Sequence record: NC_027349.1
Length of the DNA stretch: 64,000 nt
DNA from: Escherichia phage HY01
Strand: one strand, 5' to 3'
Shown in pieces: positions 1,968-56,235 of the stretch; the stretch's first letter is position 1, and every line of letters begins with the position of its first letter. Below the pieces are notes generated by a model that worked only from the letters and a program-made list of their open reading frames with translations, was not told the DNA's origin and did not search any database. The position numbers were made by a program, and so were the translations under genes.

Positions 1968-2970
1968 AACTTACCAATTCAATCCAAGCCGGACGAAGTA
2001 CATCTTGTACCATTTTAACTAATTCCTTCTTAATCAAAGAAGGATTATCCGCTTGAGTTAGAGTAATACCTTCACGAGAAGTTTCTTCCAAAATATCTTG
2101 AACAGTTAGTCCCATCACCTTTCCAAAATCTTTTGGACCAATTTCGCCAATTTTAGAAATAACGTTATTTACTCGGTTCAGTGTAACGTAGCAAGCTAAA
2201 ATTCCCAGCAATTTATTATCAGCTTCTGACAACTCAACTTTAGCTTTAATAGGTTTATCAGACTTTTTCTTTTCACTAAATTTAGAGTTCTTGCATTTGA
2301 TGGCTACGCGATTGCCATTAGGCATCCAAGAAGGATAACAAGGTTTTAATACATATCCTTCAGCGGTAAATACTTCGCCTTTTGCTTCGGCATTCCAAAC
2401 GCATTTATTTGCATCAACTAATCCAGCATGGTCTACTGTAAAATTATAATCTTGGACAACAGAATCTAAATCGTTTGGCAATTTAATAAGCTCTTCAAAT
2501 TTACCGCGACCTAAAAGTGGAGCCATTTTAAATTTAAATGTATTACAGAATGATTCCATCATATAATCATCGACATAAGTCACATCACCGCTTTCGGTAG
2601 TAACAATAATGTCAAATACATAAAAATCTTTATCGCCATAATCGACATTCTTCTGAATGCCAGGTCCAGCAAATTCACCGAAGACTTGATAAGATACAAC
2701 TGCTGAAGTTTCCATAATATCTTGTACTGCTTTAATGGAATCAGCGTAATTCTTTAGAATAATTTCATACCCAAAGAAATCTTCAGCAGGAAGAATAGGA
2801 CCAGTACGTTTAGCACAAGTTGCTTTATCGCGTTCAATAATCAGTGAGAAATTTGTGCCATGAATCTTTTCACGAGCTACCCATTCGCCACCAGTCAATC
2901 CTAAACTGTAGAGTTTTTCAATGAATTTAGAATTGTAATGATTTTCAAGACTGCTATACTTTTTAAACAT
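1966..2970 (-). CDS. rnlB: RNA ligase 2 (Rnl2)
   Basis: 334 aa; nucleotidyltransferase motif I KIHGTN present; matches remembered T4 Rnl2 length and N-terminus. Confidence 0.9.
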
Positions 2971-2979
2971 AATTAATCC

Positions 2980-3258
2980 TCAAAATGTAATTTCTAACCA
3001 ATCACCATCACGCTGATCACTATTGACTTTAAAGCTAAATCCTTCTTTTCTCAGCCAATCACCAATTTCTTCAGTAATCAATTTATCGCGAGCAGTACAA
3101 TAATAACTAAAATATGTTTTACCTTGTTCAGCTGCTTTATTAGCAAGTTCCGAAAAATCTTTAATAAAACACTCTAGTTTAAACTGTTTACTTTTAAGTG
3201 CTTTTTCGCGTAATTGATTAGCGAAAGATTCATTTTCATAAAGATCATACTGTTCCAT
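2980..3258 (-). CDS. Hypothetical protein (position of T4 24.2)
   Basis: 92-aa ORF with ATG start, coupled to neighbouring ORFs. Confidence 0.6.
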   Translation of the reverse strand: MEQYDLYENESFANQLREKALKSKQFKLECFIKDFSELANKAAEQGKTYFSYYCTARDKLITEEIGDWLRKEGFSFKVNSDQRDGDWLEITF

Positions 3259-3460
3259 TTTTCACCTTTTTATTAATATGTCTTTTTCTATAGACAACTT
3301 TTTCTCGAGTCTCAAATTTATTCTTAGCAGTCATAGCTCGAGCCCATAATACAGCCACTTCTTTCGCCTGCAAGTTCAATTCACGAGCAATTTCAATGAA
3401 TGACTTTCCAGACTCATGAAGAGTAAACACCACAACCTCAGTTCTCATAATCAATCTCAT
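3245..3460 (-). CDS. Hypothetical small protein with helix-turn-helix-like segment (position of T4 24.3)
   Basis: 71-aa ORF; KSFIEIARELNLQAKEV resembles an HTH; alternative in-frame ATG at 3448. Confidence 0.5.
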   Translation of the reverse strand: MRLIMRTEVVVFTLHESGKSFIEIARELNLQAKEVAVLWARAMTAKNKFETREKVVYRKRHINKKVKNGTV

Positions 3461-3519
3461 GTTATCGAGTTGATGCCATTATATACAACGTTTTCTGATT
3501 GTGTTTTGCGTGCTTTCAA

Positions 3520-6956: not shown

Positions 6957-7187
6957 ATGTTACTAGAATTTAAACAATTTCTTTATGAAGCTTCTATTGA
7001 TGAATTTATGGGTAAAATTGCATCATGCCAAACATTAGAAGGTCTAGAAGAACTTGAAGCTTATTATAAGAAAAGAGTTAAAGAAACTGAATTAAAAGAT
7101 ACTGATGACATCTCTGTGAGAGATGCTTTGGCAGGAAAAAGAGCTGAATTAGAAGATTCAGACGATGAAGTAGAAGAAAGCTTTTAA
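6957..7187 (+). CDS. uvsW.1: UvsW.1 small acidic protein
   Basis: Track start at 6945 is TTG; in-frame ATG at 6957 with GGAG Shine-Dalgarno gives 76 aa, the T4 UvsW.1 length. Confidence 0.8.
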   Translation: MLLEFKQFLYEASIDEFMGKIASCQTLEGLEELEAYYKKRVKETELKDTDDISVRDALAGKRAELEDSDDEVEESF

Positions 7188-38991: not shown

Positions 38992-39036
38992 TTAGTACCT
39001 TATATAAATTATAATACATTTTATGAAGCTAAATAA

Positions 39037-39384
39037 TCAATACGGTTTAGCATCAAATTTTCTTTCAATTTCAGGCGTGAAATATAATTCTTTACCACGC
39101 TTGGAAAAGCGACCAATAATATGATAATTATTCTCATCAAACGTGATATTGCCAATATCCATAGCTTTCAACCAAATATCGATATTTCTATCCAGTTTTA
39201 TATCAAAATTCCAATACGGAGAACTATTACCGAAAATACTGCAAGCGGATTCAGTGAAACAACTGCTATAAATCTTGTCTTTAGGAACTACTAATTGATA
39301 GACGCCTTTAATAAACTGAGGACCCTGCCATTTTGGCTGTTTCGCGCCTTTTTCTAATAGAATAGGGTAATAATTAAAGTTCAT
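39037..39384 (-). CDS. Hypothetical protein inserted between frd and td
   Basis: 115-aa ORF with ATG start and no recognisable motif; occupies a junction that is a 4-nt ATGA overlap in T4 as I recall it. Confidence 0.55.
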   Translation of the reverse strand: MNFNYYPILLEKGAKQPKWQGPQFIKGVYQLVVPKDKIYSSCFTESACSIFGNSSPYWNFDIKLDRNIDIWLKAMDIGNITFDENNYHIIGRFSKRGKELYFTPEIERKFDAKPY

Positions 39385-39404
39385 ATTTTCTGCCGCGCGT
39401 TATT

Positions 39405-39992
<588 letters not shown>

Positions 39993-40247
39993 TCAAAACC
40001 CCCTTTCAATAAACCATTCAGTGGCTTTATTAGCATCAAAGAATAATTCTTCATATGTCTTTTCTTTGTTTTCAAAAACTGTCACACAAACACGTTGACA
40101 GTCTCCGCAGTATTCTTCTGACATGCTCAAAGCGTCAGAAAACATTTCATTAAATTCATTTAAATCAGGATTATGTAATGCATTAAAAATTGCATAATCG
40201 AATTCATCATTCATAAATTCAAATACAAAAATCATATTACCTCCCAC
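39993..40247 (-). CDS. Hypothetical protein (frd.1 position)
   Basis: 84-aa ORF. Confidence 0.55.
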   Translation of the reverse strand: MGGNMIFVFEFMNDEFDYAIFNALHNPDLNEFNEMFSDALSMSEEYCGDCQRVCVTVFENKEKTYEELFFDANKATEWFIERGF

Positions 40248-40591
40248 TGAAAAGGGTCAGAAGCATATCCGCTAGCTTTAATCATTTTAACTAAAGTTAC
40301 CATGCCTTTGTTAACTGCTTGCGCAATTTCATTAAAAACTTCATCACTATCATCGTAAAGGTCATTAAAAAGTTCTAACACGTTCTTCTGAACTTTTAAT
40401 TTACGGCCGACAATTTCGCCTACAGTAAATTCGTTTCCGCCAAATCCAGCGTAAAATGTAATTACACCCATTAACTGGCTTTCGCGAGAATCTATGTCAT
40501 GTGATAAATTAATAAAAGCCGTCCCAGGCGCGGTTTTAAGTCGACAACGAATTCTTACTTGGATAATTCCAGTTATATGAATGTCAGACAT
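40232..40591 (-). CDS. Hypothetical protein (frd.2 position)
   Basis: 119-aa ORF. Confidence 0.55.
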   Translation of the reverse strand: MSDIHITGIIQVRIRCRLKTAPGTAFINLSHDIDSRESQLMGVITFYAGFGGNEFTVGEIVGRKLKVQKNVLELFNDLYDDSDEVFNEIAQAVNKGMVTLVKMIKASGYASDPFQWEVI

Positions 40592-40601
40592 AATATTTTC
40601 C

Positions 40602-40844
40602 TCAAACAGACTTTTTCACAATTTTCCAATCAGCTTTAAACTGTTCAACGTCAGAATGATAAATCCAAAATCCTGCGCTTTCTCCATCCTCATAAAGAGG
40701 GCATCCATCGCATTCATCTTCCCATCCCATATCACGTAAAAGATGTTCAGCTTTTTCAACAAGTTCAGAATCTTTACCAATGATATTAAAATACCATTTA
40801 CCTCTAACTTCTGAATCTTTAATGCTCTGGCGTTGTAATCTCAT
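40602..40844 (-). CDS. Hypothetical protein (frd.3 position)
   Basis: 80-aa ORF with Shine-Dalgarno, downstream of an early promoter. Confidence 0.55.
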   Translation of the reverse strand: MRLQRQSIKDSEVRGKWYFNIIGKDSELVEKAEHLLRDMGWEDECDGCPLYEDGESAGFWIYHSDVEQFKADWKIVKKSV

Positions 40845-40869
40845 TTTATTCTCCTTAGTTGATAGGGTA

Positions 40870-40899
40870 ATAGTATCACACTACTACCCTGTTGTAAAC
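40870..40899 (-). promoter_or_regulatory. T4-type early promoter (GTTTAC-N18-TACTAT)
   Basis: Member of the conserved GATAGGGTAA...GTAAAC cassette family. Confidence 0.45.
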
Positions 40900-41300
40900 T
40901 ACTTTTTGAAAGTTTTTCGCAAAAGTTCAATGATTTCATCTACATTGTTTTCGTCTACAATGCAGTGAATTTTTGTTACGCCAGAAATCTTGTCTTCGAC
41001 TTCATCTTCTTCAGAAGTCGGTTCTTTATACTCGCGGAAACAATAAAACTCTTCTTCACTAAGTTCAAAATAATCATCACCCATGCCATCATCATTATAG
41101 ATTTCGCCATTAGCACAAATGATTTCAGTTACATAATCAAAGCCATCTAAATTTGATATTGATTTAACTTCAAACCAACCACCATTTTCTTGAATGATGC
41201 CGACCATATTAGCATTTGATGAACTAATATCAATGAAAGATTTAATACGATGTGGATTTAACTCATATTTTTTGCCGATTTCCATTTTGATTTTCCTCAT
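40899..41300 (-). CDS. Hypothetical acidic protein
   Basis: 133-aa ORF with GAGGA Shine-Dalgarno; Asp/Glu-rich C-terminal half. Confidence 0.55.
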   Translation of the reverse strand: MRKIKMEIGKKYELNPHRIKSFIDISSSNANMVGIIQENGGWFEVKSISNLDGFDYVTEIICANGEIYNDDGMGDDYFELSEEEFYCFREYKEPTSEEDEVEDKISGVTKIHCIVDENNVDEIIELLRKTFKK

Positions 41301-41330
41301 TTTGATAGGGGCTTGATAGCCCCTTAATAA

Positions 41331-41558
41331 TTATTGTTCAATCAGTCCCATGTAAAATTCTACATCTTCAGAATCCATACCATCACAATATTCATTAGCC
41401 ATAAAGCGGGTGAGGTCTTCAAGAGGGCCTTCAATAACGATTTGAATACTCCAAAACTTAGAATCTTGCACGCTTGTGATACTAAGTTCAGGATAATGAT
41501 TACGAATAATTTCTTCAATATATTCAAAATCAACGATGTCAATATCAACTTTAGCCAT
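41331..41558 (-). CDS. Hypothetical acidic small protein
   Basis: Start moved to ATG at 41558 (AGAGGAAAA Shine-Dalgarno), 75 aa; strongly acidic. Confidence 0.5.
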
Positions 41559-41601
41559 ATTGTTTTCCTCTTTAATCATCAGCAGTATTGCCGATAGTTG
41601 T

Positions 41602-41631
41602 ATAGTACCATAGTCCTTGTGGTATGTAAAC
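41602..41631 (-). promoter_or_regulatory. T4-type early promoter (GTTTAC-N18-TACTAT)
   Basis: Cassette nearly identical to those at 58292-58321 and 61936-61965. Confidence 0.5.
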
Positions 41632-41650
41632 TGTTTTGTGAAAAAATTTT

Positions 41651-41680
41651 AAAATAAAAAAGGGGACCTCTAGGGTCCCC
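41651..41680 (-). terminator. Rho-independent terminator after gene 32 (GGGGACC-CTAGA-GGTCCCC)
   Basis: 7-bp GC-rich stem followed on the minus strand by TTTTTTATTTT. Confidence 0.6.
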
Positions 41681-41702
41681 AATTAATTAGTAATATAATC
41701 TA

Positions 41703-42611
41703 TTAAAGGTCATTCAAAAGGTCATCCAGGTCCGTGTCATCAGCACTAGATGAACTGCCAGAGCTTGAGCTCATAAAATCATCTTCAGTTTTTGTTTTGA
41801 AGTCATCAACATTAAATGCATCCAAATCATCAGCAACTTTATCGGCTTTCTTAGCGGCAGTTGCTGCGGCACCACCCATAGCAGCAGTTCCCATAACTTG
41901 ACTGAACTTAGTGCTCAGTTCTTCAAACGATTTGAATTTATCTTTAGAAGTCATTTCAGAAAGGTCAACCATTTGTTCGAACAGTTCTTTCTGGAAAGAT
42001 TCATCATCAATGTTTGGAATCGCAGATTGATTCAGGAATTTAGATTCGTCGTAGTTACTAAAACCAGAAACTTGTTTAACTTTCAGTACAAAGTTAGCAC
42101 CTTCCCACGGACAAGTTACATCAACCGGAGTTTCACCCATTTCAACATCAACTGCAATCATTGCATTGATTTTATCCCAGATTTTCTTACCGAAACGGTA
42201 TTTAAATACTTTACCTTCATTTTCTGGAGCAGCTGGGTCTTTTACTACAAGAATGTTAGCCCAGTAAGAAGTTTTACGTTTAACAAGACCGTACTCTTTA
42301 TTGTCAGTATTATACAAATCATTTTTACTGATGTACTGACATACTGGGCAAGAATCGTAATCACCGTAGGTAGATGAGCATGTTTCGATATACCATTTAC
42401 CATTTTTCTTGAAACCGTGATTTACAAGAAGTGCGAATGGTGCTTGTTCATCATTTTTAGACGGAAGAAAACGAATTACTGCTTGACCGTTACCCGCATT
42501 ATCGAGTTTCAGTTTCCACTCGCCTTTATCTTCAGAAGAAAAACCACCTTTATTTCCAGCCAGTTTAGCCATTTGTGCAGCGAGTTCAGCAGTAGATTTA
42601 CGTTTAAACAT
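41703..42611 (-). CDS. 32: Single-stranded DNA-binding protein gp32
   Basis: 302 aa; zinc-site region [14 protein letters not shown]; acidic C-terminal tail; matches remembered T4 gp32. Confidence 0.95.
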
Positions 42612-42661
42612 TTTTATTTCCTTTTTAATTTAATTAACAGTTGGTGCTATGACACTTTACC

Positions 42662-43294
42662 TCATAGCTGGCATAATTCACAATACTCTGGGTCTTCGAG
42701 AGGTATCCAACCTGAGTTGAAATACTTTACCATCGATTTAGCAGTTGTATCAGTTATATTTATATTACCTTTAACTCTTCGCCATCCAGGAGTTTTACCG
42801 TACAGATTAGAGGATAATAATAACACATAATTCTCGTAAGCAATATGAGATAATTTCCAAGACTCTATATTAGCTCGTGATGTTTTCCAAGGTCTAAAAT
42901 CGTCACGGTTCATATAATTAGCCAATCTCATATGCTCTCTAACTTCCGGGTCTTTGGCTGGATGAGTTTCACCACTCACACCAAATCCGCCGCCAGCATA
43001 TACCAGATTAAAATAGTCTGGATTATCTCTGGCATTTACTTCAAGTTGGTATTTTCGCTCTGCTTCAATAACATCCAAATCATCATCAATTTGAATTATT
43101 TTAACGCTCGGTTTTTGAAGCATTACCGCATTTAAAAATCTTTTTTGTTTACACGAACTCCAGTATTCCTTTCCGGAAGAGTCATATATTATTCCATTCT
43201 CAAATGAGCAATTTAATTTACTGCCGATATAGTAGTACGGCGGAGTCTTATTTTTGACACGGTCTTCAAATGTAAACCAATATACTATATTCAT
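42662..43294 (-). CDS. GIY-YIG homing endonuclease (SegG-like) between genes 32 and 59
   Basis: 210 aa; N-terminal IVY...YYYIGS GIY-YIG-type motif; occupies the T4 segG position. Confidence 0.65.
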   Translation of the reverse strand: MNIVYWFTFEDRVKNKTPPYYYIGSKLNCSFENGIIYDSSGKEYWSSCKQKRFLNAVMLQKPSVKIIQIDDDLDVIEAERKYQLEVNARDNPDYFNLVYAGGGFGVSGETHPAKDPEVREHMRLANYMNRDDFRPWKTSRANIESWKLSHIAYENYVLLLSSNLYGKTPGWRRVKGNINITDTTAKSMVKYFNSGWIPLEDPEYCELCQL

Positions 43295-43295
43295 A

Positions 43296-43949
43296 TTAAT
43301 ACTTACAGGATTTCACAGTTTCAATGAAAACACTTTTAGCTTTCTGTGAATCAATATTTAAAATTTTTCTATAAGCTTTTAACTTTATAGAATAATTATT
43401 CCAGACTAAATTATCAGTCTGTTCATCATGTTTATCAATTATATTTAAAAACGAATCAAGCAAGATAAACGTCTCAAACGAAATTATATTCGATTGAAGT
43501 AGTTTAAAAATATAACTTGATTGAACTTTTGGATTATACTCAAAGATTTCTTTAAAAGCAGAAACTTCAACTTTTTTACTAAAATAATAAATGTTGCGAA
43601 TATCTTCTTCAAACTTAAATTTAATTTGCTTTAAGCGTCCGATATATTCACGATAAAACACAAGTGCATCAGCGTCAGAGATGTCACCAATCCAAGCATC
43701 TTGGTTAGCAACAAGATTGCTTATAAAGATTAAAGCAAGTTCCTTTAATTTATATTTTTCTGATAACTTCTGGAAAAAATACTTATCCCTTCGCTTTTGA
43801 TAAGCGGCATCAGACACCCGCATGCACCAATTATACTTAATTACATCATACTTTCCATTCATATGTTGTTTTATCATTAAGTATAATTTATAAACTGATT
43901 TACCATCAATGTATCTTTCACCACCAGCAGGCATGCGGAGTTTAATCAT
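43296..43949 (-). CDS. 59: gp59 helicase loader
   Basis: 217 aa as in T4; conserved position. Confidence 0.85.
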   Translation of the reverse strand: MIKLRMPAGGERYIDGKSVYKLYLMIKQHMNGKYDVIKYNWCMRVSDAAYQKRRDKYFFQKLSEKYKLKELALIFISNLVANQDAWIGDISDADALVFYREYIGRLKQIKFKFEEDIRNIYYFSKKVEVSAFKEIFEYNPKVQSSYIFKLLQSNIISFETFILLDSFLNIIDKHDEQTDNLVWNNYSIKLKAYRKILNIDSQKAKSVFIETVKSCKY

Positions 43950-55807: not shown

Positions 55808-55960
55808 TCAATTAGTTGACTTTACTATAATATCATCAGACGCTTGATTTGTAAACTGGTCTGTGGTATTTTCTTCAAAAATTTTTTCTACGAATTCCTT
55901 GAACGACTTACGTTCCTGAGCTATATTATGCTCGATTACTTTTTCAAGATTATGACTCAT
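55808..55960 (-). CDS. Hypothetical 50-aa protein between arn and asiA
   Basis: Not in the track; hand-translated MSHNLEKVIEHNIAQERKSFKEFVEKIFEENTTDQFTNQASDDIIVKSTN; ATG overlaps the arn stop (ATGA); contains the asiA early promoter. Confidence 0.4.
   Translation of the reverse strand: MSHNLEKVIEHNIAQERKSFKEFVEKIFEENTTDQFTNQASDDIIVKSTN
55827..55856 (-). promoter_or_regulatory. T4-type early promoter for asiA (GTTTAC-N18-TATTAT)
   Basis: Minus-strand GTTTAC at 55856-55851 and TATTAT at 55832-55827. Confidence 0.45.
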
Positions 55961-56235
55961 TCGAAATAATCTTCAATTTCATAATCAAGAACATAAATCA
56001 TTATAGTTTTTAATACATCATCAATACTTTTTCCTGGAGCTGGAATTACGTAAAAATATCCCGCCTTTGAGGTATCTTTATAAGTTCCAACCAAGAAATC
56101 ATTATTTTCAAGATGCAGTTCTTCAACCAATTCATTAACAATTGAGTGGTATAAATTTGGTAGAAACTTATATAGCTTTTCTAAAATATCAATTTTGATT
56201 GTATATTGAACCACAGATTGAGAATCAATAATCAT
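55957..56235 (-). CDS. arn: Arn, anti-restriction (McrBC inhibitor) acidic protein
   Basis: 92 aa, acidic; position next to asiA; length as T4 Arn. Confidence 0.75.
   Translation of the reverse strand: MIIDSQSVVQYTIKIDILEKLYKFLPNLYHSIVNELVEELHLENNDFLVGTYKDTSKAGYFYVIPAPGKSIDDVLKTIMIYVLDYEIEDYFE

Follow-up and report, generated by a model that had tools for sequence, protein, structure and literature searches.

The region between gene 32 and frd, the dihydrofolate reductase gene, of Escherichia phage HY01 raises the question of what is done by the two small, strongly acidic proteins encoded there. An earlier note on the 64,000-nucleotide (nt) stretch analysed here (sequence record NC_027349.1; hereafter the window) had proposed them as candidate DNA mimics or anti-defence factors, and its premise that the proteins are small, acidic and early is correct. 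By sequence comparison, the two open reading frames (ORFs) are orthologues of the T4 early genes frd.3 and frd.2, and their products are most likely stoichiometric binders of host proteins. To the favoured explanation as a whole, orthology together with a non-enzymatic binding role for both proteins, we assign a probability of about 0.5. Both genes and both families are already catalogued and the identification adds nothing as a discovery; a conserved motif in Frd.3 and a cassette swap within Frd.2 are modest new leads. The two genes and the predicted modules of Frd.2 are located as follows:

41331-41558, minus strand: frd.3 coding sequence, 75 amino acids (aa), following its promoter
40899-41285, minus strand: frd.2 coding sequence, 128 aa, assigned by Pfam, PHROG and identity to T4
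41022-41285, minus strand: predicted N-terminal SH3/LSm-like beta-barrel of Frd.2, residues 1-88, net charge -12 in the window allele, a hypervariable cassette
40986-41021, minus strand: predicted disordered acidic linker of Frd.2, residues 89-100, PTSEEDEVEDKI, net charge -5, model confidence (predicted local distance difference test, pLDDT) below 50 at residues 91-100
40902-40985, minus strand: C-terminal module of Frd.2, residues 101-128, SGVTKIHCIVDENNVDEIIELLRKTFKK, net charge 0, a near-invariant strand-helix with the helix modelled at residues 115-126

The 128-aa protein matched Pfam family PF03197 (FRD2) with an E-value of 2.1e-38 and 131.4 bits (cut-off 29), and the 75-aa protein matched PF05798 (Phage_FRD3) over 75/75 profile positions (E 1.9e-38, 131.3 bits, cut-off 28.1). 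All 13 divergent members of the Frd.3 family matched PF05798 as well. Frd.2 was identical to T4 Frd.2 (NP_049852) at 124/128 residues (97%), with the same position, start codon and length; four substitutions apart, the two represent the same gene in a sister phage. Frd.3 was identical at 73/75 residues (97%) to T4 Frd.3 (NP_049853), recorded as an 'uncharacterized 8.8 kDa protein in frd-Gp32 intergenic region', which has the same position and promoter and differs by two substitutions. The gene order 32, frd.3, frd.2, frd.1, frd is likewise shared with T4. The ORFs, which the earlier note could not match to named T4 genes, therefore both carry established names. Over positions 40500-42000, identity was 100% to Escherichia phage PEC04 (KR233165, Tequatrovirus) and about 95% to both T4 and T6. 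Searches with tblastn retrieved Frd.3 from 735 and Frd.2 from 886 phage records, all of T4-like phages of enterobacteria. Together with the Pfam matches and the confidence of the AlphaFold2 models (pLDDT 94 for Frd.3 and 86 for Frd.2), these records indicate that both ORFs are real genes.

Both ORFs lie on the minus strand with the peptides quoted earlier, although the start of frd.2 needed correction. A GAGG Shine-Dalgarno sequence is found 8-9 nt upstream of the true ATG of each gene. The 133-aa ORF originally proposed (40899-41300) would start at 41300, where a Shine-Dalgarno sequence is lacking; this extension itself holds the Shine-Dalgarno sequence of the ATG at 41285, and divergent homologues start at the shorter position. 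Frd.2 thus begins at ATG 41285 (128 aa, MEIGKKY...), the form annotated in T4 and PEC04, and its homologues all begin with M-E/K/Y-I/V/T-G/D-K/R. An extended, 82-aa form of Frd.3 starting at 41579 was rejected on the same grounds: it lacks a Shine-Dalgarno sequence, holds that of the 75-aa form, and is not matched by the short starts of divergent homologues. The good Shine-Dalgarno sites that had been claimed were accordingly confirmed for Frd.3 (ATG at 41558) and for ATG 41285, and not for the start at 41300.

Sequence and profile searches of the PDB gave nothing significant for either protein, PADLOC and NCBIfam returned no meaningful match, and the matches from a search of BFVD were confined to small proteins without characterisation, the majority of them from T4-like and Erwinia jumbo phages. 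Paralogues of either family were looked for in the window and none were found, and the papers retrieved from the literature by protein accession, locus tag or Pfam number were all unrelated. One homologue of Frd.2, in phage vB_EcoM_Nami (MZ502380, 2217-2603), is labelled 'putative PinA peptidase inhibitor', which looks like a misannotation: PinA, the T4 inhibitor of Lon protease, matches phrog_2167 and not phrog_622, and hhalign of the Frd.2 profile against PinA gave a probability of 0.9%.

The strong acidity noted earlier was borne out, with an isoelectric point (pI) of 4.05 and net charge of -14 over 75 aa for Frd.3, which ranks first in acidity per residue among about 96 crude ORFs in the window, and a pI of 4.31 and net charge of -17 over 128 aa for Frd.2, among the five most acidic. 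Per residue, the charge amounts to -0.19 for Frd.3 and -0.13 for Frd.2, both more acidic than the -0.10 of Arn (net -9 over 92 aa), a genuine DNA mimic (PF22134) that is encoded in the same window (55957-56235), as the note had said. UvsW.1 (6957-7187, plus strand; PF11637, 76 aa), with a net charge of -12, comes third in the window by acidity per residue. Extreme acidity is thus common in small T4 proteins and constitutes weak evidence alone. The two families differ in how well the charge is kept. In the Frd.3 family a high negative charge is conserved, every homologue, including those only 26-29% identical, having a net charge of -6 to -14. In the Frd.2 family it is not: the whole protein ranges from -4 to -23, the barrel from +1 to -17 and the linker, which is 5-18 aa long among homologues, from +1 to -6, while the barrel of GoF and the whole of MotB.1, which belong to the same family as discussed below, each have a net charge of -2. 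The acidic runs that had been quoted are present, but the part in Frd.2 (PTSEEDEVEDK) belongs to the disordered linker, which is shortened or non-acidic in many homologues. Strong acidity therefore characterises this frd.2 allele and not the family as a whole, which makes Frd.2 less likely to be a DNA mimic.

Within the GoF / MotB.1 / Frd.2 family, Frd.2 is a paralogue of GoF built of two modules. Its AlphaFold2 model (pLDDT 85.8) places five strands within residues 6-85, followed by the linker and a helix at residues 115-126, and agrees with the 'LSm-like fold' family layout of Kim et al. 2025: a five-stranded antiparallel bent barrel, a flexible linker and a C-terminal domain. Membership is reflected in matches to phrog_622 by Frd.2 (E 2.4e-45), by GoF over its full length (E 4.6e-38) and, weakly, by MotB.1 (E 1.3e-3). 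At the level of single sequences, pairwise BLASTP and hhalign of Frd.2 against GoF and MotB.1 were not significant (for GoF, BLASTP E 18 and hhalign probability 1.4%). The closest structural neighbours of the Frd.2 model were FeoA, the DtxR SH3 domain and Tudor-like protein-binding domains, with Hfq outside the top 60.

The barrel and linker of Frd.2 are swapped as a cassette between otherwise near-identical Tequatroviruses. In comparison with Tequatrovirus REP1, DNA identity was 83-100% up to the start codon, fell to 30-60% across 41280-40981, and returned to 97-100% from 40980 on, so that the breakpoints coincide with the frd.2 start codon and the boundary of the C-terminal module. A similar drop over the barrel and linker was observed with phage G50. 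The alleles P0065-P0068 combine barrels only 32-33% identical to that of the window with C-terminal modules that are 89-100% identical (33% and 100%, respectively, in P0065), and the reverse is seen in P0042 and P0043, with 90% identity in the barrel and 64% in the C-terminus. Because the identities of the alleles differ by module, the barrel and the C-terminal module reassort, with the linker as the junction. As far as we found, this mosaic has not been described before. A hypervariable barrel is what would be expected of a module that faces a variable host target or sensor.

Frd.3 is predicted to be a single compact ferredoxin-like domain, acidic throughout the family; the model (pLDDT 94) comprises a single alpha/beta domain with the order beta-alpha-beta-beta-alpha-alpha. 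The family is narrow, since an alignment-based profile search of 1.84 billion protein representatives gave 6 matches only, without longer or multidomain relatives. Residues D10, Y13, E16, E56, Y57, G60 and E64 are invariant and E12, C58 and M61 nearly so, and together they form an acidic/aromatic motif (D10, E12, Y13, E16 and E56-Y57-C58-x-G60-M61-x-x-E64) that maps to the beginning of helix 1 and to the helix 2-loop-helix 3 turn. Such a discrete site suggests a specific basic partner and would be compatible with nucleic-acid mimicry over a short stretch, of the type known for UGI and p56. Elsewhere in the protein, the beta2-beta3 hairpin (residues about 33-43; 41431-41460) is a local variable patch and the lowest-pLDDT segment of the model; here DNA identity to REP1 is 63%, vs. 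93-100% in adjacent 30-nt bins, and the REP1 peptide reads HDDPNYCNFSIV.

Frd.2 and frd.3 are not obligately linked. In Mosigvirus JK42, frd.3 (2501-2728 of the locus) has moved next to tRNA-Met and tRNA-Arg genes, and Mosigvirus SF carries 32, frd.2, frd.1 and frd with no frd.3 between them, frd.2 in mosigviruses still directly following gene 32. In the Providencia Gualtarvirus the order is 32, a frd.3-like gene and frd, with no frd.2 at the locus. Salmonella phage S16 has two tandem frd.2 paralogues (2737-3513 of the locus), 38% and 66% identical to the Frd.2 of the window; this phage also has two extra small ORFs that separate gene 32 from frd.3. Functional coupling of frd.2 and frd.3 was rejected on account of this independent assortment, and the two are unrelated accessory genes that assort independently in a variable region between larger genes.

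Both proteins are small and neither matched an enzyme family in Pfam, NCBIfam or the PDB, which is the basis for the non-enzymatic part of the favoured explanation. Frd.2 would act as an adaptor, its constant C-terminal module docking on a conserved partner and its variable barrel engaging, or escaping, a variable host protein; by analogy with GoF genetics, the target could lie in mRNA decay or termination. Frd.3, judging from its fold topology, would most likely act by stoichiometric binding or inhibition of a basic host protein, probably one that binds nucleic acid. Published data support the dispensability of both genes. An amber mutation in T4 frd.2 makes no difference to plating between hosts with and without a suppressor, the efficiency of plating being about 1 (PMC12152347), and in the CRISPRi-ART screen frd.3 (-0.49) was classed as 'Not fit', as was frd.1 (-0.46) (PMC11879866). 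The mRNA of frd.2 served as an invariant control in a study of motB (PMC6070864). For GoF, mRNA stability is the sole known phenotype (PMC12152347).

Several points weigh against this explanation. The adaptor and inhibitor mechanisms are modelled on the architecture of the proteins and the habits of other small T4 early proteins, and the clustering of the conserved Frd.3 residues at one pole is suggested by the topology of the predicted fold. The exchange of the Frd.2 cassette could be neutral recombination in a hyperplastic region rather than the outcome of selection. Only the D25Y mutant of GoF, a gain-of-function form, stabilises mRNA, the wild-type protein having no demonstrated activity (PMC12152347), and a binding partner of Frd.2 or Frd.3 was looked for in published interaction data and none was found. 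In conflict with the amber result, frd.2 emerges from CRISPRi-ART as a fitness gene (score 0.83, p 0.027), the only one of T4 with function unknown; none of the retrieved guide rows was individually fit, and gene 32 scores 3.29 in the same screen (PMC11879866). The effect of the frd.2 knock-down is only marginal.

Among the alternatives, a more far-reaching one treats the two proteins separately as counter-defence factors. Frd.3 would represent a new fold of nucleic-acid mimic or defence inhibitor whose acidic/aromatic pole blocks a basic DNA- or RNA-binding protein of the host, and the Frd.2/GoF family would be a modular counter-defence adaptor, its barrel swapped to match or evade variable host immunity proteins and its invariant C-terminal helix delivering a constant activity. 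We consider this alternative unlikely.

Somewhat harder to maintain is the original proposal, in which one or both proteins block host restriction or defence nucleases by DNA mimicry in the manner of Arn and Ocr. It draws on the high negative charge density of both proteins relative to Arn, their early expression, their dispensability on laboratory hosts, the conservation of acidity throughout the Frd.3 family, the hypervariable Frd.2 barrel, with a pattern of the kind expected from an arms race, and the precedent of an acidic SH3-like DNA mimic, CarS (PMC2926617). The case is mostly carried by Frd.3, the better candidate of the two given the family-wide conservation of its acidity. For Frd.2 the evidence leans against mimicry, given a barrel charge that runs from positive to strongly negative across alleles, an acidic linker that is disordered and dispensable, nearly neutral paralogues, and a PHROG shared with GoF, for which the sole known phenotype lies in mRNA stability. 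For Frd.3, the conserved residues form one discrete motif and not an extended charge array, and a relationship to Arn was rejected (hhalign probability 0.4%). In the searches run here, neither protein resembled a known DNA mimic, defence or anti-defence protein, and neither had a sequence or fold match to Arn, Ocr, ArdA, UGI, p56, CarS or other known mimics. To our knowledge, DNA mimics share no common fold; a fold match would be supportive, not defining. No mention of frd occurs in the main text of the preprint on EVADES, which brings together 268 anti-defence proteins. Overall, DNA mimicry by either protein appears improbable.

An equally doubtful alternative, the hypothesis of Kim et al. 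2025, regards Frd.2 as an LSm-like chaperone that binds RNA, with phage or host mRNAs as its direct targets. The five-stranded LSm/Hfq-like barrel, the family shared with GoF, the match to a PHROG annotated as goF mRNA metabolism modulator, and the stabilisation by GoF(D25Y) of a reporter mRNA with the gene 41 5' untranslated region (PMC12152347) are consistent with it. However, a net charge of -17 overall and -12 on the barrel is unfavourable for RNA, and the reporter assay showed no effect of wild-type GoF or MotB.1 (PMC12152347); direct RNA binding by Frd.2 is disfavoured on these two grounds. The ranking of FeoA, DtxR SH3 and Tudor-like domains ahead of Hfq as structural neighbours points the same way.

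That the Frd.2 barrel binds host RNA polymerase, like the Tudor-like domains of CarD, Mfd and UvrD/PcrA, and so modulates transcription seems very improbable. The least credible proposal, that Frd.2 and Frd.3 are accessory subunits of the replication or deoxynucleoside triphosphate synthesis machinery, takes its support from the location of the two genes, which are flanked by gene 32 and frd in T4, PEC04, G50, REP1 and S16, but this position is not conserved (frd.3 near tRNA genes in JK42, frd.2 missing from the Gualtarvirus locus), neither gene is essential, and the stretch between 32 and frd gains and loses small ORFs between phages.

All genes of the stretch around frd.3 and frd.2 are carried on the minus strand, and the ORFs, which had been placed upstream of gene 32, are for this reason downstream of it in transcription, after a terminator (41680-41662). 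In order of transcription, the other features are:

41703-42611, minus strand: gene 32, first in transcription order here
41662-41680, minus strand: intrinsic terminator of gene 32, GGGGACC-CTAGA-GGTCCCC followed by a T run, from a terminator scan
41602-41631, minus strand: early sigma-70 promoter of T4 type, GTTTACA, 17 nt, TGgTACTAT, with an A/T-rich stretch upstream, from a promoter scan
41307-41324, minus strand: intercistronic hairpin between frd.3 and frd.2, AGGGGCU-AUCA-AGCCCCU, RNA fold -14.7 kcal/mol, z -2.4
40864-40898, minus strand: second promoter-like site, TTTACA, 17 nt, TACTAT with TG, from a promoter scan, overlapping a 12-bp hairpin just upstream of frd.1
40602-40844, minus strand: frd.1, which follows frd.2 in the unit, 80 aa, DUF5417 (Pfam PF17438, E 1.2e-33), annotated as frd.1 in T4
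39993-40235 and 40232-40591, minus strand: two further small ORFs between frd.1 and frd, absent from T4 and present in PEC04
39405-39989, minus strand: frd, dihydrofolate reductase, last in transcription order here

The terminator sets gene 32 apart from the frd.3 transcription unit. Its RNA fold has a free energy of -14.4 kcal/mol, and its sequence is the same in T4 and in G50, whose record annotates a terminator there. The early promoter that the earlier note had placed at 41602-41631, upstream of the ORFs, is present and phylogenetically conserved. Its GTTTAC and TATGnTACTAT elements are invariant in PEC04, T4, G50, Salmonella phage S16 (Gelderlandvirus) and Providencia phage PSTRCR_127 (Gualtarvirus), while the spacer varies. 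The invariance of the -35 and extended -10 elements across a diverging spacer is good evidence for a functional early promoter before frd.3. In T4, the frd.3 mRNA has been reported among the most abundant NAD-capped T4 RNAs (bioRxiv preprint 10.1101/2024.04.04.588121).

The hexamers of the second promoter-like site (TTTACA, 17 nt, TACTAT) are those of the frd.3 promoter, and the hairpin that it overlaps, before frd.1, folds with -16.1 kcal/mol (z -2.7). The sequence CUAUCAA follows each of the two intercistronic hairpins (40864-40898 and 41307-41324). One of the two extra ORFs between frd.1 and frd encodes an 80-aa protein with a pI of 4.05 and net charge of -13, matching Frd.3 in acidity, which belongs to phrog_3183, has no Pfam match and had not been flagged previously; the other encodes a 119-aa DUF7247 protein. 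An Rfam scan of 39000-43500 gave Yar_1 as the sole match, sub-threshold and spurious. Further upstream, a 210-aa ORF (42662-43294, minus strand) between gene 59 and gene 32 occupies the position of T4 segG, a GIY-YIG homing endonuclease gene, where PEC04 annotates only a shorter, 462-nt 'putative homing endonuclease'.

About a third of T4 genes have no assigned function, and conservation of frd.2 and frd.3 extends to hundreds of T-even phages. In Frd.2, the pairing of a barrel exchanged as a cassette with a C-terminal module that is invariant argues for a design of specificity plus anchor, and this design and the acidity of Frd.3 are two points able to guide experiments.

Of the systems with which the two proteins can be compared, GoF (comC-alpha, 'mRNA metabolism modulator') has the same architecture as Frd.2, with an N-terminal barrel, an acidic linker and a C-terminal strand-helix, of which the C-terminal element can be aligned. 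Like Frd.2, it is early and non-essential (PMC12152347). The two differ in the charge of the barrel, nearly neutral in GoF (net -2) vs. -12 in Frd.2. The SH3-like domains of the FeoA and DtxR type share 7-12% sequence identity with the Frd.2 barrel, a likeness at the level of the fold only, and nothing in the context of Frd.2 points to metal transport. CarS, an antirepressor of Myxococcus xanthus, is a small, acidic, five-stranded SH3-like barrel, as is the predicted barrel of Frd.2, and binds the DNA-recognition helix of its repressor in an acidic-lined pocket (PMC2926617); it illustrates how nucleic-acid mimicry could be achieved by an acidic barrel like the one in Frd.2. Arn, finally, is like Frd.3 an early T4 protein, small and acidic, with its gene in the window; it is less acidic per residue, the charge density of Frd.3 being about twice as high, and its DNA mimicry is experimentally established.

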